Positions 3,294-60,653 of a stretch of 64,000 nucleotides of DNA are shown here, piece after piece. Position numbers and translations under genes: made by a program. The DNA is from an uncultured Chloroflexia bacterium (GTDB lineage: Bacteria > Chloroflexota > Dehalococcoidia > DSTF01 > JALHUB01): the NCBI GenBank assembly GCA_963703345.1, contig OY969814.1:1248001-1312000 (forward strand). Reading direction: 5' to 3'. The number at the start of each line of letters is the position of its first letter. The first letter of the stretch is position 1. The notes below the pieces were generated by a model. The model was not told where the DNA came from, ran no database searches, and saw only the letters and a program-made list of their open reading frames with translations.

Positions 3294-3499
3294 CCGGCGC
3301 CTCGGAGCGAAGAGGGAAGTGGCGACCTCAAAGGAGTCGAAGCGAGGCAGCCCGGTGGGCGATACAGACACCATCAGCGGTGAATCTCCTGAGGGCAGGT
3401 CAATGGCTTCTGCGGCGTCCTTTCGCCCGCATTGATCAACGCCTTGCGCGGGAGTAGATTGGCTTCATGGAAAGTCGCCCGAGAGCAAGGAGATACGTG

Positions 3500-4780
3500 A
3501 TGAAACGCTGGTCATTCGTCGCACCTATCCTTTCGCTAGTCGCGGCCGGCATCGTCTTGGCCGGCTGCTCGAACTCGAAGGAGGAAACATCGGGCGCGAC
3601 GCCCGGGGGTCCGGTGCCCGGCGTCACCGACACCGAGATCCTGCTCGGGACGCACATGCCGCTGAGCCAGACGCCGGCCGCGGCCTGGGGCGTTGTCGCT
3701 GACGGCATGAAGGCCTACTTCGGGTACGTCAACTCCCAGGGTGGCGTCTATGGGCGCAAGATCAAGCTGATAGTCGGCGATAACCAGTACGCCGCGCCGG
3801 TCGCGGTGGAGGTTGTGCGGAACCTGGTGGAGCAGGATGGAGTGTTCGCGATCGTGGGTGGCCTCGGCGACTCATGTCACCTCGCCGTCATGGATTACCT
3901 CGCGGAGAAAGGCGTTCCTGACCTGTTCATCGGCGGCGGCATGCCACAGTTCACCGATCCCATCGTGAAGACGCGCTTCAGCATGGTGACCGACTATGAT
4001 ACCGAAACGAAGATCAACACGCAGTACATGAAAGAGCATTTCGCCGGCAAGACGTTAGGCATTATCTATGAGAACAACGAGGGCGGTAACCTGGAGTTGC
4101 AGCGGACTGAGGAGGGGTTGGCCGGCTCAGACATCAAGATCGTCTCCGAGCAGGCGTACGATTTCACCAATTTCGACCTCACTGCCCAGGTGCAACGCCT
4201 GAAAGCCACCAACCCCGATTTCGTCTTCGTGATAGGCAACCCGGGCTCCCTGGCCAGCGCCTTGAAGGTGGCGCGCGAGATCCTCAACTGGGACGTACCT
4301 TTCATGACCAGCGCTGTCTCTGCCGTGGAGATGACGATTGCGCTCGCCGGAGCCAGCAACGCCGAAGGTCTGGTCAGCTTCACAACGGGCAGGATGATCT
4401 CTGAGACGGACGATCCGGGGGTGCAGCGCGACATCGCGCTGATGAAGCAGTTCGCGCCCAGCGTACCGCCGAGCAGCCTGACGGAGTACGGCATAAGCAC
4501 CGCTGAGTTGGTCGTGCAGGCACTGAAGAACGCCGGCCCGAACCTAACACGCCAGAGCGTGGTCGACGGGGCGGAGCAGATCCGCGGTTACTGCTGCATC
4601 GCTTGCATTGCACCGGTCAACCTCAGCCCGACCGATCACCGCCCCGACGAGGCAGAGTGGCCCGAGCAGGTGGTCGACGGGAAGTGGGAGCGCAGGTCAG
4701 ACACGCCGATCAGCTACGAGTCGACGCCCAGCGACGTCACCGCGTGCGAGAACGGGGAGCCGGTCCACAAGGGCCAGTAG
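3500..4780 (+). CDS. ABC transporter substrate-binding lipoprotein (branched-chain amino acid / LivJ-like family)
   Basis: Lipobox LAGC; GVTDTEILLG, NSQGGVYGRKIKL and LVEQDGVFAI motifs; AGGAG RBS before ATG 3500. Confidence 0.85.
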   Translation: MKRWSFVAPILSLVAAGIVLAGCSNSKEETSGATPGGPVPGVTDTEILLGTHMPLSQTPAAAWGVVADGMKAYFGYVNSQGGVYGRKIKLIVGDNQYAAPVAVEVVRNLVEQDGVFAIVGGLGDSCHLAVMDYLAEKGVPDLFIGGGMPQFTDPIVKTRFSMVTDYDTETKINTQYMKEHFAGKTLGIIYENNEGGNLELQRTEEGLAGSDIKIVSEQAYDFTNFDLTAQVQRLKATNPDFVFVIGNPGSLASALKVAREILNWDVPFMTSAVSAVEMTIALAGASNAEGLVSFTTGRMISETDDPGVQRDIALMKQFAPSVPPSSLTEYGISTAELVVQALKNAGPNLTRQSVVDGAEQIRGYCCIACIAPVNLSPTDHRPDEAEWPEQVVDGKWERRSDTPISYESTPSDVTACENGEPVHKGQ

Positions 4781-4832: not shown

Positions 4833-4980
4833 TGGTGGGCGATGCAGGGCTCGAACCTGCGGCCTTCTGAGTGTAAAGCATCTGCGCCTGAGCGCTGTGC
4901 AACAGATTCAGCACCCCTGAGCGAAAACGCGGAAGTTATCATCTGGAAAATGGGCCATTAGGCGCGACTGCGACTAGTCC
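4833..4980 (-). repeat. att-like repeat copy 1 (tRNA-Val 3' fragment with 2 mismatches + arm of about 100 bp)
   Basis: tggtgggcgatgcagggctcgaacctgcggccttctgagtgtaaa followed by gcatctg...gactagtcc. Confidence 0.95.
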
Positions 4981-4990
4981 CACCTGTACG

Positions 4991-5377
4991 TCACTGCCGA
5001 GAAATAATGTCCTTGAATGTTACAGGGTCTGTCGCGTAGAGAACCGCTCGTTCCAAGGCTTCTTCGCGGAAACTATGAACCTTGAGATAGTCGGGGTTGT
5101 TGGCCATTTTGAGGAACGCCTTACGGGACGGATATTGGACGAGCATCACAATATCCCACGTCTCTATTCCATTGAGCAACTCTTTTGCCTTGCCGAAATA
5201 AAGCAGCTTGCCGCCGACGTTTTCGACGAAGGGCCCCGATTCCTTGATGTACCGAAAATAAGCCCCGCGGCCTCCTTCGTTCTTAAACTTCAGGAGGTTG
5301 AGCATGACAAATGGTCCTTCATTCGTATTAGCGGCTAATTCCTGGAATTGATCTTTGTTGGTTTTGATGCCAGTCAT
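4991..5377 (-). CDS. DUF1330 family protein
   Basis: GPFVMLNLLKF, WDIVMLVQYPSRKAF and HSFREEAL motifs; visibly lower GC than the flanks. Confidence 0.8.
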   Translation of the reverse strand: MTGIKTNKDQFQELAANTNEGPFVMLNLLKFKNEGGRGAYFRYIKESGPFVENVGGKLLYFGKAKELLNGIETWDIVMLVQYPSRKAFLKMANNPDYLKVHSFREEALERAVLYATDPVTFKDIISRQ

Positions 5378-5420
5378 TCTATGCTTTCTCCTAAAAGAAT
5401 GGGATGTAAGAAAAGCCGTC

Positions 5421-5470
5421 TGGAGGGCCGTGAGGGGTTCGAACGCTCGACTCCCGGATTAGAAGTCCGC
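5421..5470 (-). pseudogene. 3' fragment of tRNA-Arg(TCT), possible att remnant
   Basis: Reverse complement CGGA-CTTCTAA-TCCG (anticodon arm), GAGCG-TTCGAAC-CCCTC (T arm, one mispair), ends in CCA; no D arm or 5' acceptor strand. Confidence 0.7.
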
Positions 5471-5595
5471 GAGTCGTTTGGGCCATACCGGGCACCTGCG
5501 GATCCTGTGGTCTTGCCCGCGTTGACATCTGACGACAGGATTACACTGGTTCTTCAGGGCTGCTGTCTGCGGCTGCTAGGGCGTCGCCGCGACGG

Positions 5596-6042
5596 CTAGT
5601 GCCTGCTTCGGGCAGAGGTCGCTGCAGATCCCGCAGCCGCGAGCGGGGCAGGCTGCGAAGTATCCTGGACTCCATCCATAATCGGATGCCAACCGTCTGA
5701 GCCTTCCCCTTGCGTAACTGCCTGGGCCGCATCATCCCCGGAGGCGGCGCTCTCCGAGGCCTGCTCAGAAAGACGGAGCAGGCCCTGAGCCAGCTCTTCC
5801 ATGCTGTAAGGGCCCTGTCGGCGGTGGCGCATCAGGGCCTCAACGTTCACCGAATAACGGTTGCGCCGGCCTATCTTTTCCCGCGATATCATGCCGTCCT
5901 CCTCCAGAGCCCTGAGGATGGAGAAGGCAGCTCTGTCTGTGATGCCGACGGCAAGAGAGATATCGCGCTGGGTCGAATGTGGGTGGTCGATGACGTCGAT
6001 CAGGACAAGGGCGTGATTGGTGAGGAAATCCCAATGAGCCAT
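5596..6042 (-). CDS. winged helix-turn-helix transcriptional regulator (MarR/AsnC-like)
   Basis: MAHWDFLTNHALVL...TQRDISLAVGITDR...LEEDGMISREKIGRRNRY; GGAGG RBS. Confidence 0.8.
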   Translation of the reverse strand: MAHWDFLTNHALVLIDVIDHPHSTQRDISLAVGITDRAAFSILRALEEDGMISREKIGRRNRYSVNVEALMRHRRQGPYSMEELAQGLLRLSEQASESAASGDDAAQAVTQGEGSDGWHPIMDGVQDTSQPAPLAAAGSAATSARSRH

Positions 6043-6262
6043 GTTTTTTCCTCCAAAAGGGCTTGACAAGACCGAAAAGGGAAGTACAATGCTGGTAAAA
6101 AGTAACGGGGTATGAGGTTCATGGTATGCCTGTCTGGAATGTGGTAGCCGGTAACACGTAACCTGGTATGAAGTTCCTGGCACGTCGGTCTGGCATGTGG
6201 TAACCGGTCTTCATTGTCACGAATCATTATTCATGATAGGCGCTCCAAAGTCAAGCGGTTGG

Positions 6263-6554
6263 AGCGACAAAAGAGCCAAGAATCCCGGCAAGGGCCGGAT
6301 AGCCAGAAAGCCGTGGACAGGAGAGATCTCTGAGGCCGTCCATTCAGGGAGGATTCGGAGCCCGTCGTCGCGGAGGGGGAGTAGGGGGTAGGCCACTAGT
6401 CAGGACTGGGCGACACGGGCGTCAGTGGTGACCGGGCCTGCGGAGAGAGGTGATGGGCGATCGGATACGGGGTCCGAGGGGTACCCCGCCGGGCGGCTGG
6501 CCAGGGTCGGCCTGTCCCGCCCCGTGGGCCCGGTCAATCCAACACCAAGCCTAC
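6263..6554 (+). repeat. direct repeat of about 280-290 bp, copy 1 (putative structured RNA leader upstream of the USP gene)
   Basis: Aligns by eye with 7054-7330; contains stems GACCGGGCC/GGCCCGGTC and CGGGGT/ACCCCG. Confidence 0.8.
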
Positions 6555-6578
6555 GTTGGAGGTCGGAGGTAGGACGCC

Positions 6579-7028
6579 ATGTACAAGAAGATGCTGGTCC
6601 CGGTGGACGGTTCCCTTCGTTCGGAGGTCGTAGTACGCCATGCCGCCGAGACAGCGAAGGCATTTGGCTGCACCATCAGGCTGCTCACGGTCGTCGATCT
6701 CGACAAGCGCAACGGCAAGGTGACTCAGGGCGGGGACTCCGATGAGGTGGCGAGCCTTGCCTGGGTCGAGTCGCAGATAGAGAAAGCCGAGAACCACCTG
6801 CGACCGGTGGCGGAGCGCTTTGAGGACGAGGGCCTGAAGCCGGAGATGGAAGTGCGCTTTGGGAACCCGTCGAGCGAGATCCTGAAGGCGGCCGCCGAGT
6901 ACGGCACGGACATCATCGCCATGGCCACGCGCTCGCGACGAGGCGTCGCGCGGCTGATGTTCGGCAGCGTGGCGGACCAAGTGCTGAAAGAGTCGCACGT
7001 GCCGGTCCTGCTGATAACGGCGGCTTAG
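6579..7028 (+). CDS. universal stress protein (UspA family)
   Basis: MYKKMLVPVDGS...GNPSSEIL...DIIAMATRSRRG...FGSVADQVLKESHVPVLLI. Confidence 0.95.
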   Translation: MYKKMLVPVDGSLRSEVVVRHAAETAKAFGCTIRLLTVVDLDKRNGKVTQGGDSDEVASLAWVESQIEKAENHLRPVAERFEDEGLKPEMEVRFGNPSSEILKAAAEYGTDIIAMATRSRRGVARLMFGSVADQVLKESHVPVLLITAA

Positions 7029-7053
7029 CCGTCGGGCCGGACGAGCGCCAGAT

Positions 7054-7330
7054 AGCGACTAAAGAAACAAAAATCGTGGCAACGGCCGGATAGCCAGAAC
7101 GCCGTGGACAGGAGAGATCTCTGAGGCCGTCCAATCAGGGAGGATGGGAGCCCGTCGTCGCAGAGGGGGAAGAGGTCACTAGTCAGGACTGGGCGACACG
7201 GGCGTCAGTAGTGACCGGGCCTGCGGAGAGAGGTGATGGGCTATCGGATACGGGGTCTGAGCGCTGCCCCGTCGGGCGGGGTCAGCCTATCCCGCCCCGT
7301 GGGCCCGGTCCATCTCAGCACCAAGTCTAC
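7054..7330 (+). repeat. direct repeat of about 280-290 bp, copy 2
   Basis: Paralog of 6263-6554; ends next to an 11-nt tRNA-Val 3' stub (tggtgggcgat, 7332-7342). Confidence 0.8.
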
Positions 7331-7385
7331 ATGGTGGGCGATCAAAGTTGGAAGTTAGAGTCTGGAGAGTGAATCTGGGCGGTTC

Positions 7386-7533
7386 TGGTGGGCGATGCAG
7401 GGCTCGAACCTGCGACCTTCTGGGTGTAAAGCATCTGAGCCTGAGCGCTGTGCAACAGATTCAGCACCCCTGAGCGAAAACGCGGAAGTTATCATCTGGA
7501 AAATGGGCCATTAGGCGCGACTGCGACTAGTCC
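7386..7533 (-). repeat. att-like repeat copy 2 (perfect tRNA-Val 3' 45 nt + arm)
   Basis: Identical to tRNA-Val 11609-11653, then the conserved arm. Confidence 0.95.
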
Positions 7534-7797
7534 CGGTGGAAGCTCTGCGCAGTGGCTTCGTAAGTACGAAGCTGGTCTTCAAACGTGGACACAGAGCCTT
7601 GCCATCGGAGCAAGCACAGTTCGGTCACGACAAATGGTGCCTATGGGAGTCACACGCTGGAGTCGTTTCCGGGGGCAGGTCAATGGAAACTGGCGAAGCT
7701 TCGGACCCTATGGGACTGCCGCATTCTGGCGGCGCGGTGTATAATCTGGCGCGACATGGAAACGAACGTGCTCTATGGCGACAAAGGAGGCGAGCTA

Positions 7798-7968
7798 GTG
7801 TTTGAGTACAGAATCGTCAAGTCCAACACGCATGCCGGTCTTGAGGAGCAAATCAACAAAGCAGCCGCTGAGGGCTGGGAGCCGATAATGGTCTACGCTT
7901 GGAATACGGGATGGGTGACCGCAGCTCATGCTGTCCTGCTGCGGCGTCCTGCGCCCGGGGCCGTGTAA
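7798..7968 (+). CDS. small protein, DUF4177/DUF1737-like
   Basis: AAGGAGG RBS then GTG; FEYRIVKS...LEEQINKAAAEGWEPI; TGTATAAT extended -10 at 7738-7745. Confidence 0.65.
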   Translation: MFEYRIVKSNTHAGLEEQINKAAAEGWEPIMVYAWNTGWVTAAHAVLLRRPAPGAV

Positions 7969-8011
7969 GCCCCTAGCGGCTGGTACGTGAAGATCGGATA
8001 GAAAGGTGGCC

Positions 8012-8040
8012 GAGGGGCCGCCCTCAGGGGCGGCCTTCTC
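8012..8040 (+). terminator. GC-rich hairpin, probable terminator
   Basis: gaggggccgccc-tcag-gggcggccttctc, downstream of the small ORF. Confidence 0.55.
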
Positions 8041-8179
8041 ATTACCAGTCGGGCATGCTAGCTGTACCTCGGCTGTCGCCCGTCGTTGCGTGTGGAGGGG
8101 CTTGTCTCTCGACGACGGGGCGGCGCGGCCTCTCCCTTTTCGAGGCAGGACGCCCCGACTCGCAATTCGTTTGGAGTTC

Positions 8180-8326
8180 TGGTGGGCGATGCAGGGCTCG
8201 AACCTGCGGCCTTCTGGGTGTAAAGCATCTGAGCCTGAGCGCTGTGCAACAGATTCAGCACCCCTGAGCGAAAACGCGGAAGTCATCATCTGGAAAATGG
8301 GTCATTAGCTGCGACTGCGACTAGTC
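8180..8326 (-). repeat. att-like repeat copy 3 (tRNA-Val 3' fragment with 1 mismatch + arm)
   Basis: Same 45-nt core (cctgcggcc variant) and arm. Confidence 0.95.
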
Positions 8327-8505
8327 TTGGTGGAAGCTGGGCGTAATGGCTTCATAAGTGGTCGGGCGAGAAGCAATGCAGTCGACGAACGGATACCGCC
8401 AGCCTGGCCGATAGATAGGGCAGGTAACAAGGGTGGTAGGACCGGAGAGTGGTCACCGGCCGATATCTTCCTGTCCTTGCTCGGCAGCGCGCAGGTCGCG
8501 GATGT

Positions 8506-9186
8506 CTAAGCCGCAGTCTCGTCGTCTCGCTTGTGGCGATGCAACAAGTTGCGGAACCGGTCATGCACGCCAGCTCGAGTCTGGCCGAGTTTCTCTTCGC
8601 CGTTGGGCCCCACCGGTAGCGACCAGTCGTCCCCAGCTTTTGGCCATTGGTCGGGGTCGGGCGGGCCTTGAATTTCGACTCCGTCAGACGCGCTCGGCTC
8701 TGCGGGCTGAGACTCGAGATAGACCTCTTCTTCCAAGGGCAACGGTATGGAATCATCGCGAAAGACGTCCACAGTTTGAGACTTAAGATATTCGTCTTCA
8801 TCTGGAGGCGGTGGAGCCTCATGGACAACGCTGTCTACGGGTTGAGACTCGAGATGGAGCTCCTCATCTGAGGACGACGGTGCGACCTCGTCGCCGAGGT
8901 CATCCACGATTTGAGACTGAAGATCAATCTCGTCATCTGAAGACGGTGGAGCCTCGTCGACGACGCTGTCCACCGGTTGAGATTCGAGATAAATCTCGCC
9001 ACCTGAGGGCGACGGTGTAACTTCATCGCCAAGGTCCTCCACGGTTTGAGACTGAAGATCTTCCTCTTCACCCGAGAACTGAGGCATGCCTTCGTAGCGT
9101 GCGTTGTCGTTGCCGACCTCAGCTAAGCGCTTCAGAGCCCACGCACCGAGAGCCGCGACTATTGCTAACGTCAGGAATCTGCGCAT
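8506..9186 (-). CDS. acidic repeat protein with N-terminal hydrophobic segment
   Basis: GGAGGTG RBS; MRRFLTLAIVAALGAWALK; about 6 repeats of ~22 aa (L[QE]SQxV[DE]...). Confidence 0.7.
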   Translation of the reverse strand: MRRFLTLAIVAALGAWALKRLAEVGNDNARYEGMPQFSGEEEDLQSQTVEDLGDEVTPSPSGGEIYLESQPVDSVVDEAPPSSDDEIDLQSQIVDDLGDEVAPSSSDEELHLESQPVDSVVHEAPPPPDEDEYLKSQTVDVFRDDSIPLPLEEEVYLESQPAEPSASDGVEIQGPPDPDQWPKAGDDWSLPVGPNGEEKLGQTRAGVHDRFRNLLHRHKRDDETAA

Positions 9187-9364
9187 TTCTTCACCTCCAT
9201 GTGTCAATGAATTATCGGCACACTGCACGATCGGAGGACTGCATTAAGGCTGCTGGTTGGCACCATCTTCACTTAGTGTGGGTTCTGCAGACGGCTGGGG
9301 TCCGCAAAAGGGAGTTTTGGGAGAATTGGAAGTTAGAAGCTGGAAAGTGAATCTGGAAGGTTTC

Positions 9365-9512
9365 TGGTGGGCGATGCAGGGCTCGAACCTGCGACCTTCT
9401 GGGTGTAAAGCATCTGAGCCTGAGCGCTGTGCATCAGATTCAGGACCCCCGAGCGAAAACGCGGGAGTCATCATCTGGAGAATGGGCCATTAGCCGCGGC
9501 TGCGAGTAGTCC
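9365..9512 (-). repeat. att-like repeat copy 4 (perfect tRNA-Val 3' 45 nt + arm)
   Basis: Same core; arm has several substitutions. Confidence 0.95.
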
Positions 9513-9766
9513 TGAGCGCCAAAGCGATCGTTCCTCGCTCTGGGCCGGGGTTCGGATGACTCGCTGAGCTAGCGCTTAACTACTTTCAGGCATTTCACCC
9601 ACATCGTCGCTCCTTTCATCGTTGGCAGGCGCAGCGAGCATGGTTTCTTCACCTCGATTGGCTGGCCTTTCACGCGGCAACCATATCGCCGTGATAGCCT
9701 CAGCTTAACGAGCAGTCGCCGACGACACCTGGCTCATTCAGCAGATGCGAAGAGGAGGGATATCCA

Positions 9767-10402
9767 ATGGCAACACCGCTTGATGCTATAACCAGCATCC
9801 ACAAGGCTTTCCGTCGCGATATCGCAGAAATTGACGATGCGGCATACAAGGCCGCAGCAGGCGACGGTGATTTGTCGGTTGTTGTGGATCGACTTCGCTT
9901 TTTCAGCGAGATTTTGCGATGGCATGCAGACGGCGAGGAAAAGACGGTGTTCTCGACCATGGACAGAGTGGCGCCGCTCGTGGCGAGGCCCTACTTCCTA
10001 GATCACCGCCAGTTGGACATGATGACCGATGGCCTGGCCCAGGTGTCGGCTACGTCAGACCCGCTTATTACAGCCCGGGCCACGGCGGCGCTCAACACAC
10101 ACTTGCGAATTCACCTCGACAAAGAGGACGTACATCTCTATCCGATTCTGCGCGAGCGTACCCTAGCGGACGAGCAGGCCTCGATAGTCGGAACGATGGC
10201 CGGAGAAGTGCCGCCTGAGCGACAGCCCGAACTCATACGCTGGTGGTTCCCCCTGGTAGGACTCGATGATCGAGAGGTCACGATCAGCGTCTGGAAGGTG
10301 CTGATGCCTGAGCCCGTGTTCGCCAGGCTGAAACCGCTTATCCAAGACACCATTGGACCGGATTGGGCGGAGCTAACGCGGCGAATCCCAGGACTAGCCT
10401 AG
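9767..10402 (+). CDS. hemerythrin (HHE) domain protein
   Basis: H-x3-E motifs (WHADGEE, IHLDKED) plus IHKAFRRD and DHRQL; GAGGAGG RBS. Confidence 0.85.
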   Translation: MATPLDAITSIHKAFRRDIAEIDDAAYKAAAGDGDLSVVVDRLRFFSEILRWHADGEEKTVFSTMDRVAPLVARPYFLDHRQLDMMTDGLAQVSATSDPLITARATAALNTHLRIHLDKEDVHLYPILRERTLADEQASIVGTMAGEVPPERQPELIRWWFPLVGLDDREVTISVWKVLMPEPVFARLKPLIQDTIGPDWAELTRRIPGLA

Positions 10403-10587
10403 CATGATTCCATTCCCCGGCCCCTGCACCGGCGACGAGCAGGGTGGTCCGCCTTCGATAGCACGGTAACTTTCGGGCTTCAACTTCGGGGCTGGAAGCT
10501 GGGGCCATAGCGCATGGGGGGCGGACTTAGGAGACCGTCGAGACCGGAGGCGCTAAGCGACGCCTATCATTCGTTTGGCAGCGGTTT

Positions 10588-10706
10588 TGGTGGGCGATGC
10601 AGGGCTCGAACCTGCGACCTTCTGGGTGTAAAGCATCTGAGGCTGAGCGCTGTGCATCAGATTCGGCACCCCCGAGCGAAAACGCGGAAGTTATCATCTG
10701 GAAAAT
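10588..10706 (-). repeat. att-like repeat copy 5 (perfect tRNA-Val 3' 45 nt + shorter arm)
   Basis: Same core; arm conserved as far as ...atcatctggaaaat, then diverges. Confidence 0.95.
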
Positions 10707-10742
10707 CTGATGCTGCGAATGAGGCTAATGGCTGGCGCAAGA

Positions 10743-11453
10743 CTAGTGCGTTCGTTGCACCATCGAGCTCAATAAGTGTACAGCTTCATCGGGAAGACCG
10801 GAGTCGCCGATGCGAAGGATATTCAGTCTGAAGATGAGTTGAGCCTTCCTTGAGAAGGCTATTGTGAGAATGACGGGGACTATTTGGTTTCCGCTGGGGA
10901 GGGTTGCGTTGACTTCCGCACCCCACGATTCATCGCCGATCTGTGGGAAATCGAGTTTCTGAACGGCTCCGTAGGATACGCCCTTGCAGGAGGTGTTGGC
11001 CAGTTGCGATATCCCATCGGCCATATAGTTGAAAGCCATGGCGGCACCGGTCTGGTCTTGGAAGACGTGTATTCCTGAACTTATCTCGAAGACGCCGTCC
11101 GAGGCTGTCTGCGTTCCTTCGGATGGTCGGAAATCGTTGCCGTAGCCTCCGAGTTCGTGAGAGGCGTCGAACACCGCCCCGGTATTGGGATCGCACGAAG
11201 AGCTAATGGCGTTTTCCCGTGTCCCTGCTCCAGACCGCGCGGGGTCGAGGGCGAATGTACTGTAGGTAATAGGCAGATCACCAGCCCTCAGAACCATATT
11301 AGGAAGATCTGCCAGGGAAAGGGGGGTAGTTGTTGGGCTGGTGCTCGTTGCCACGCTTTGCGGGGTGGAGTTGCCTCGGCCACAGGCGCATATTACCAAC
11401 GCTATGCCGGTCGCAATGAGGAGGAAGAGTCTCGGGTGCATGATTCGCCTCAT
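10743..11453 (-). CDS. putative lipoprotein
   Basis: Signal peptide with lipobox-like ICAC, Thr/Ser/Pro linker, PQIGDES motif reminiscent of PknH-like extracellular domains. Confidence 0.7.
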   Translation of the reverse strand: MRRIMHPRLFLLIATGIALVICACGRGNSTPQSVATSTSPTTTPLSLADLPNMVLRAGDLPITYSTFALDPARSGAGTRENAISSSCDPNTGAVFDASHELGGYGNDFRPSEGTQTASDGVFEISSGIHVFQDQTGAAMAFNYMADGISQLANTSCKGVSYGAVQKLDFPQIGDESWGAEVNATLPSGNQIVPVILTIAFSRKAQLIFRLNILRIGDSGLPDEAVHLLSSMVQRTH

Positions 11454-11556
11454 GTAGGCAGATCGGCGTGCTCCTGCGGCCGTTCGGAGGTCGGATCGCC
11501 TGCGAAAGGCCGAACCGAATCAAGAGCGAGTTGTTCAGGGAACGGGTAGTGTGGCC

Positions 11557-11584
11557 ATTATAGGCCTCCCAGACGCTGGGTCAA
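11557..11584 (-). promoter_or_regulatory. sigma70-type promoter for the lipoprotein cassette
   Basis: TTGACC-N16-TATAAT on the minus strand. Confidence 0.6.
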
Positions 11585-11608
11585 CCATGCGGGGGTTGCT
11601 GAGAGTTC

Positions 11609-11685
11609 TGGTGGGCGATGCAGGGCTCGAACCTGCGACCTTCTGGGTGTAAACCAGACGCTCTATCCAACTGAGCTAATCGCCC
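11609..11685 (-). tRNA. tRNA-Val(TAC)
   Basis: GGGCGATTAGCTCAGTTGGATAGAGCGTCTGG-TTTACAC-CCAGAAGGTCGCAGGTTCGAGCCCTGCATCGCCCACCA, full cloverleaf. Confidence 0.97.
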
Positions 11686-60048: not shown

Positions 60049-60559
60049 AACCTTCTCCTTCTTGTCCCGTATCGGGCGTTCCCCGATACGGGATACGCCA
60101 GGCTGATGACCCTGGCTTCTCTTGCCTCTAGTGCTGGAACGGACTGGCCCGTCTTGCGCGATACTGCTTATCAAGTGGCTGCGTGTCGAGAAACTTCGGC
60201 TGCTCGTCTGGCCGCGTAACTTCTATGGGTTTCGTCTGCGCGACTGACTCCTCAAGTTCAAGTGTACTCATTCAGATACATGTGAGACAGGAGGCGCTAA
60301 GAGAGGAGGGTGTGGGGTGGCCTAGCTGTCGCAAGGCCGGTGCTCGGAGGTCTGCACGGTGGGCACGAACGGGTGGCCGCTTGAGGGCAGAAGGGACGGA
60401 CGGAGTCTTGCCACACCACAGGCTTGCAGCGCGTGGGGTGTGGGTGTCAATATTCCATCCGTATCTGGGAGAGCGGCGAGTGGCAAACCAGGACCGCCGG
60501 ATGCCGGCAGAGGAGCGCAAACCCTCTGTCTGGAAAGCAGATGGTCGCCTCTTTGAGGC

Positions 60560-60590
60560 GAAAAAGGCTGGGCGAAATGCCCAGCCTTCC
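60560..60590 (-). terminator. intrinsic terminator following the tRNA-Gly fragment
   Basis: AGGCTGGGC-ATTTC-GCCCAGCCT then TTTT on the minus strand. Confidence 0.7.
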
Positions 60591-60607
60591 TCTATGTATA
60601 TGTGTTC

Positions 60608-60653
60608 TGGAGCGGGAAACGGGACTCGAACCCGCGACCCTCTGCTTGGGAAG
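60608..60653 (-). pseudogene. 3' half of tRNA-Gly(CCC), probable att site of an integrated element
   Basis: CTTCCCAAGCAGAGGGTCGCGGGTTCGAGTCCCGTTTCCCGCTCCA; starts at the anticodon loop, no D arm. Confidence 0.8.

Follow-up and report, generated by a model that had tools for sequence, protein, structure and literature searches.

Integrase-less mini-elements stacked at a tRNA-Val gene of a Dehalococcoidia bacterium, and a small integrase- and Rep-carrying element with the same attachment arm

Cis-mobilizable elements (CIMEs), which have no integration or transfer genes but keep attL and attR and lie in tandem with autonomous relatives, have been reviewed together with their tandem accretion in the ICESt1 family of Streptococcus thermophilus and with integrative and mobilizable elements (IMEs) carrying a tyrosine integrase and Rep_trans (PMC5704250). 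Tandem genomic islands bounded by target-gene repeats occupy ssrA in Dehalococcoides, and 15 of them without an integration module were proposed to be CIMEs (PMC3146451). In Prochlorococcus, transient integrase-bearing elements named tycheposons visit tRNA islands, push older elements inward and leave partial tRNAs behind (bioRxiv 10.1101/2020.12.28.424599), and integrons collect unrelated small gene units at a single site, where they are gained, lost and reordered (PMC11089894). An attP centred on the anticodon restores the tRNA gene that it enters and displaces its 3' half (PMC4383910). Here, we describe an array at the tRNA-Val(TAC) gene in a 64,000-nucleotide stretch (the window; OY969814.1, positions 1,248,001 to 1,312,000) of the one-contig, 2.28-Mb genome of an uncultured Dehalococcoidia bacterium, labelled G000. 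The array probably consists of five integrase-less mini-elements, likely derived by deletion, which share their arm with an element encoding an integrase and Rep and are likely excised and re-inserted by the integrase of such a visiting element. A literature search returned no description of this element family, most subscription papers and supplements lying outside that search.

The tRNA-Val(TAC) gene adjoins an rRNA operon, directly downstream of it. Recomputed from the window, the 3' 45 nt of the gene recur in five copies of one orientation, starting at 10588, 9365, 8180, 7386 and 4833 (spacings of 1021, 1223, 1185, 794 and 2553 bp; 0, 0, 1, 0 and 2 mismatches to the tRNA), as a preliminary description made from the letters alone had listed them. 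In all five, the tRNA sequence gives way to a non-tRNA arm at the border of the 7-nt anticodon loop, each junction being a 72-bp arm followed by the loop and the tRNA 3' half, and the five junctions bound five units with a GC content of 56 to 60% versus 64% genome-wide (Table 1). The arm had been estimated at about 100 bp and held to be shortened in the copy at 10588. It is indeed shared, but the universal arm is 72 bp and the further ~30 bp are an extension present in 25 of 65 units examined, so the copy at 10588 is complete. These 65 arm-bounded units of <6 kb were cut from 55 loci in Dehalococcoidia genomes and metagenome contigs and group into 39 clusters by nucleotide sequence (lengths of 575 to 4535 bp, with a median of 1305 bp), a few being mis-cut (e.g., L119, L124+6147) and near-duplicate contigs being kept in the count.

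The window units are bounded by direct repeats and carry unrelated cargo in both orientations. Among the cargo labels first given, Pfam backs hemerythrin, universal stress protein (USP), winged-helix regulator (wHTH) and DUF1330; neither the lipoprotein nor the acidic protein has a Pfam or NCBIfam family, so the lipoprotein label comes from N-terminal sequence only. Unit 5, listed at first as one unit with USP, wHTH and DUF1330, is a composite with a nested junction of Lys(TTT) type; in G003 and G002, a Val junction stands at this place and separates a USP/wHTH unit from a DUF1330 unit. No recombinase is encoded in the window, in agreement with the preliminary description; the six tyrosine and four serine recombinase matches of the genome all lie elsewhere.

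Which integrase could serve such units? A truncated integrase directly behind a Val junction in genome G026 led to a family of 300- to 350-aa tyrosine integrases, found in 30 of 401 genomes of the class and forming fifteen protein clusters (≥75% identity over full length), and most of its loci adjoin Val, Gly, Lys, Pro, Gln, Arg or Ala tRNAs. A tyrosine integrase co-occurring with the arm, which had been suggested as a check, was found at two metagenome loci. At tRNA-Val(TAC), contig L091 carries a 4535-bp element in the order tRNA-Val, promoter region, 302-aa integrase (PF00589, E 7e-27), two cargo open reading frames (ORFs), Rep_trans (PF02486, E 2e-20), an 83-aa ORF, a beta-flower ORF, arm, core and 3' half, and the left end of a GYD-domain cassette adjoins it, placing helper and cassette in tandem. 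At L106, an integrase 82% identical to that of L091 stands at a secondary site with a weak HUH-type Rep match. Between the arms of the window and that of L091 there are 1 to 5 mismatches in 72 positions (93 to 99% alike), and this common arm in the window, L091 and L106 bears out the earlier view of non-autonomous units with one attP type. The matching autonomous element and the evidence for reordering are what the present analysis adds.

The SAM-like domain of the L091 integrase begins at residue 14, and thus there is no N-terminal arm-binding domain, as in the simple system of the tyrosine integrase of mycobacteriophage Brujita (PMC7194413). This likeness is one of description; phage matches of the helper integrase reach at best 32 to 35%. 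The Brujita attP is said to have an extra Int site to the left of the core. The phage and plasmid collections gave integrase matches that were all <60%, the top ones 28 to 35%, and the viral_contigs collection gave no arm match and no confirmed integrase relative. In a quick tree, the L091 and L106 integrases cluster with other 3'-side Val/Gly integrases, apart from the integrase at tRNA-Gly(TCC) of G000. This latter belongs to an intact 5.8-kb sister element (1,464,478-1,470,301) with the same build as L091 and the only Rep_trans of the genome; the element duplicates the tRNA 5' half.

The arm holds three motifs whose spacing is constant across distant genomes and sister Gly elements, even in distant arms merely ~61 to 76% identical, and one of them, GATAACT, is found again upstream of the integrase gene in L091, L106 and relatives. 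In 23 ungapped genome arms, conservation is 97% in the motif columns and 88% in the others, a difference weakened by the choice of columns after inspection and by a loose motif filter; conservation in the metagenome arms is circular, as those arms were selected by motif. Because the spacing is fixed, the arm is unfolded and one motif recurs beside the integrase promoter, the three motifs may be integrase-binding sites. Rfam has no family matching the arm. It was also considered as a dif site; this candidate was dropped, because the same geometry occurs at Gly elements beside their own integrase.

Content and order of the array vary among relatives, as a proposed comparison of the tRNA-Val locus was to establish. 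Sixty relatives were searched for the arm, and the matches listed, 33 weak ones aside, include six of eight genomes of the genus, four of nine others of the family and a few of the order; in the genome collection, all 19 arm-pattern loci are Dehalococcoidia, Chloroflexi/Chloroflexia or (one) an uncultured bacterium by title. The flank beyond the terminal junction is the same in relatives, and orthologous loci were defined by the binding-protein gene that bounds the window array. The 12 loci with both ends contain one to five units: five in the window, three each in G003, G008 and G016, two in L122, one whole unit plus a partial junction in L097 and L118, and one in five further loci. In G003 a DUF3303 cassette comes before USP/wHTH, and in G007 it comes after; the swapped cassettes are 95% and 92% alike between the two genomes, and the flanking host region 89%. 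Among the cargo families of the units are DUF3303, GYD, MarR, RCC1, heliorhodopsin, guanylate cyclase, SIR2-like and patatin/SMODS, and 40 of the 66 unit ORFs scanned have no Pfam match.

Copies also occur away from tRNA-Val. The arm is found at seven further places in G000, including a three-unit array without a whole tRNA (1,919,367-1,923,381). Solo cassettes lie near 1.026 and 2.125 Mb, and 0.979 and 1.982 Mb have a single junction each. Dispersal without linkage to tRNA-Val had been named beforehand as adverse; arrays do recur at the orthologous tRNA-Val locus. Secondary targets retain stem-like flanks around the 7-nt core, and we read the target at 2.125 Mb and in L106 as a dispersed repeat with a core like the anticodon stem of tRNA-Gly(CCC). 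The DUF1330 cassette has an identical left breakpoint in the G003 and G002 arrays and at a secondary site of G000. The GYD cassette occupies the tRNA-proximal place in L097, L111 and L117, lies behind the helper in L091 and also occurs in the tRNA-less array of G000.

Right ends of units are sharp in 54 of 65, and left ends are ragged, 21 of 65 retaining the first P' motif and 6 of 65 the integrase -35 box. Integrase fragments lie within units of L037, L124 and L030, and none in window units. Small size had been taken to argue against decay; instead, the contrast of sharp right with ragged left ends, together with the integrase fragments of three units, argues for an origin by deletion and points to small (4.5 to 5 kb) autonomous elements as the source rather than large integrative and conjugative elements (ICEs). 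Movement after shrinking is suggested by the identical breakpoints at different sites and by the order swap.

We propose that a tyrosine integrase crosses over in the 7-nt anticodon loop and restores the tRNA, so that each insertion would push older units away from it and repeated insertions would build the stack. The 72-bp arm would offer extra integrase-binding sites in place of the missing arm-binding domain. Units would move as circles, alone (in trans) or with an adjacent helper (in cis), and such circles would not replicate, since, apart from the ends, the window units have no Rep or origin-side sequence in common with L091. Entry into new cells may be by natural transformation or piggy-backing. 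An integrase supplied in trans had been proposed; action from elsewhere holds up, with candidates in L091 and L106, and mobilisation may be in trans or in cis.

How does the locus compare with the described systems? By sequence, the array would fall under the CIME definition: integration and transfer genes are lost, attL and attR are kept (with the P' side partly lost in units 1, 2 and 4), and derivation from an autonomous element is indicated by the L091/L106 arm and the integrase fragments in relatives' units. Compared with CIMEs as reviewed, these units are mostly one-gene, of median 1.3 kb, up to five per array, reordered and solo at secondary sites, and the helper is only ~4.5 kb with an integrase devoid of the N-terminal arm-binding domain. 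The L091 element itself, with a site-specific integrase and a rolling-circle replication initiator/relaxase, would correspond to an IME with Rep_trans. The ssrA islands share the host class and tandem arrangement, whereas their target is ssrA, their repeat is 20 bp, their recombinase is the serine recombinase DsiB and their size is multi-kb; here the target is the tRNA-Val anticodon loop and the helper recombinase is a tyrosine integrase. Tycheposons are described as carrying their own integrase and leaving remnants that lack clear boundaries; the units described here retain an arm that is both sharp and conserved.

Integron cassettes are co-oriented and read from a shared promoter. The preliminary description had regarded the array as functionally an integron, and this was not borne out. 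On TIGR02249 the L091 and L106 integrases score 65.6 and 62 (cut-off 265), so neither is IntI; the window has no resident integrase with attI, its neighbour being the rRNA operon; and the cargo lies in both orientations, with promoter matches inside units 1 and 5. An attC-like single-strand hairpin was rejected for the arm, six of six folds being unremarkable (z of -0.83 to +1.01). Hence, the array works like an integron array but fails every integron test applied.

Several results weigh against mobilisation by a visiting integrase, besides the reservations on arm conservation given above. No circular junction was found in contigs of four runs, and among the 35 loci from an arm scan of metagenomes only 2 have a whole integrase inside an element. 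G000 has no Val-type integrase, its best match (55%) being that of the tRNA-Gly(TCC) element, and none was found in 18 genomes of the family, 3 of which have a related integrase beside Gly, Lys or Phe tRNAs. None of the 12 two-ended loci is an empty tRNA-Val/binding-protein site; other tRNA-Val loci (L159-L172) gave none either and are uninformative, because the binding-protein flank is not directly behind the tRNA. The order swap could be chimeric, as G007 is a 250-contig assembly. Units 1, 2 and 4 of the window have no P' motif. tRNA halves in G003, G006, G007 and others often hold palindromic insertions; such halves would no longer restore the tRNA, which is decay. An alternative is that the units are immobile scars of autonomous elements decayed in place by classical CIME accretion, with later changes through RecA recombination at the ~120-bp junction repeats and transformation. 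The ragged left ends, the integrase fragments, the damaged halves, the presence of ComEC in the genome, the lack of any circle in those contigs and the three-step model in PMC5704250 all suit such an explanation. We nonetheless consider it unlikely, since one miniature cassette with one breakpoint stands at tRNA and non-tRNA sites with junctions at the 7-nt core, the window halves are nearly intact, the arms are 93 to 99% like that of the helper while host genes of relatives are 85 to 90% alike, and the order differs between G003 and G007.

A visitor would be dispensable if the resident Gly(TCC) integrase (G000 1,469,173-1,470,120) moved Val units by relaxed specificity. It is of the same family, its element is intact with Rep_trans and has the same arm geometry (42/72 identical), and G000 and L106 both have Val arms inserted at a core resembling that of Gly(CCC). 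Its different subclade in the quick tree and the arrays of G003, G006, G007 and G008, genomes without a family match at E 1e-50, make this improbable. An assembly artefact, or a dispersed repeat resembling a miniature inverted-repeat transposable element (MITE) that lies beside tRNA-Val by chance, might account for arms at seven other places, and no read spans the array. We give this explanation very little credence: the cargo is unrelated, the junctions are non-identical and bound the units as direct repeats, no inverted arm pair is among the 25 longest inverted repeats listed, and many independent assemblies have arrays at the orthologous locus. Contigs of run X1, which may be the source sample of this genome, match seven array stretches with 0 to 5 differences, and one joins the 8225 arm to unit 3 cargo, although none spans the whole array. 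A joint of 8061 to 7381 in run X2 was considered as a circle and rejected, since L108 has a variant of the unit-4 cassette whose P' end matches the linker.

Table 1. Features of the tRNA-Val(TAC) array, in window positions
Feature	Position	Strand	Remarks
tRNA-Val(TAC)	11609..11685	-	attL-type site; 3' half would derive from unit 1
Unit 1	10633..11653	-	1021 bp core to core; tRNA-proximal
Sigma70-like promoter match	11557..11584	-	Precedes the gene of unit 1 as a promoter of its own rather than a shared Pc; consensus match only
Predicted lipoprotein ORF (unit 1)	10743..11453	-	No family
Junction 1	10588..10704	-	Arm 10633-10704, loop and tRNA 3' half 10588-10632; 3/72 mismatches to L091 arm, 0/45 to tRNA
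Unit 2	9410..10632	-	1223 bp; homologue is unit 1 in G006
Hemerythrin-domain gene (unit 2)	9767..10402	+	PF01814, E 1e-14
Junction 2	9365..9481	-	Arm 9410-9481, tRNA half 9365-9409; 5/72, 0/45
Unit 3	8225..9409	-	1185 bp; retains first P'-side motif of helper
Acidic protein gene (unit 3)	8506..9228	-	Three 135-bp repeats; no family
Junction 3	8180..8296	-	Arm 8225-8296, tRNA half 8180-8224; 2/72, 1/45
Unit 4	7431..8224	-	794 bp; 91% identical homologue in L122
56-aa ORF (unit 4)	7798..7968	+	Sub-threshold DUF1737/DUF4177 matches
Junction 4	7386..7502	-	Arm 7431-7502, tRNA half 7386-7430; 1/72, 0/45
Unit 5	4878..7430	-	2553 bp; composite of USP/wHTH and DUF1330 cassettes
USP gene (unit 5)	6579..7028	+	Between ~280-bp direct repeats 6263-6554 and 7054-7330
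wHTH ORF (unit 5)	5596..6183	-	PF13412 just above cut-off
Nested tRNA-Lys(TTT)-type junction (unit 5)	5419..5535	-	Lys arm is shortened and 3' half degenerate; approximate upper end
DUF1330 gene (unit 5)	4991..5377	-	93% identical solo cassette at G000 1,025,917-1,026,500
Terminal junction (attR-type)	4833..4949	-	Arm 4878-4949, displaced tRNA 3' half 4833-4877; 2/72, 2/45
Periplasmic binding protein gene	3467..4780	+	Conserved distal flank of array

Cargo of the window has further copies in G000. The ~280-bp repeat around the USP gene has a third copy at 550,743-551,013 (no Rfam match above threshold), an 89% copy of USP lies at 1,505,074-1,505,541 and an 81% copy of wHTH at 550,283-551,013; a shorter homologue of the unit 3 acidic protein, without the 135-bp repeats, stands at 2,124,435-2,124,851 beside a Val arm junction. 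Elsewhere, a 3990-bp unit (L124:910-4619) carries patatin and SMODS-domain genes, a cargo like that of cyclic-oligonucleotide-based antiphage signalling systems (CBASS), behind an integrase C-terminal fragment. Integrase-less units of 19 kb (L038:1196-19989) and 15 kb (L039:1826-16948) have the same arm geometry, with cargo that by eye looks like CoA-transferase and steroid-type catabolic clusters; both were rejected as helpers, having no integrase match. The palindromic insertions are ~20 to 40 bp long at one constant T-arm position (junctions of L021, L022, L024, L032, L033 and L036), and tandem copies of the tRNA-Val 5' end lie upstream of the gene in L021:12661-12800, L023:15474-15610 and L122. 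Other tRNAs are affected likewise: the genome has 53 tRNA fragments, and halves of Lys(TTT), Gly(CCC), Gly(TCC) and Pro(GGG) show the same scatter. At 568,000-595,000 and 1,903,000-1,911,000, tRNA-Lys(TTT) halves form larger arrays that have their own two types of arm. At window positions 60455-60653, a tRNA-Gly(CCC) 3' half stands beside a ~90-bp dispersed repeat with at least six genome copies, the core of which is a secondary target of Val-type elements.

Islander-type searches reject candidates of <2 kb or without an integrase (PMC4383910) and would therefore miss such arrays. With a candidate helper identified, mobilisation becomes directly testable with a 302-aa integrase, a ~120-bp site and a tRNA target, and a small integrase with short sites could seed genetic tools for Chloroflexota. 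More tentatively, it is possible that Dehalococcoidia run a convergent, integron-like shuffling in which pooled one-gene cassettes, each pared down to a 72-bp arm and a tRNA half and kept mobile by selection, are excised, reordered and exchanged among species by arm-less integrases brought in on rolling-circle elements of 4.5 kb, with Val, Gly and Lys sister systems inserting at one another's sites and exchanging cargo. If the units are mobile, they would represent a second route to integron-like cassette arrays, one that uses double-stranded tRNA attachment sites instead of attC hairpins.

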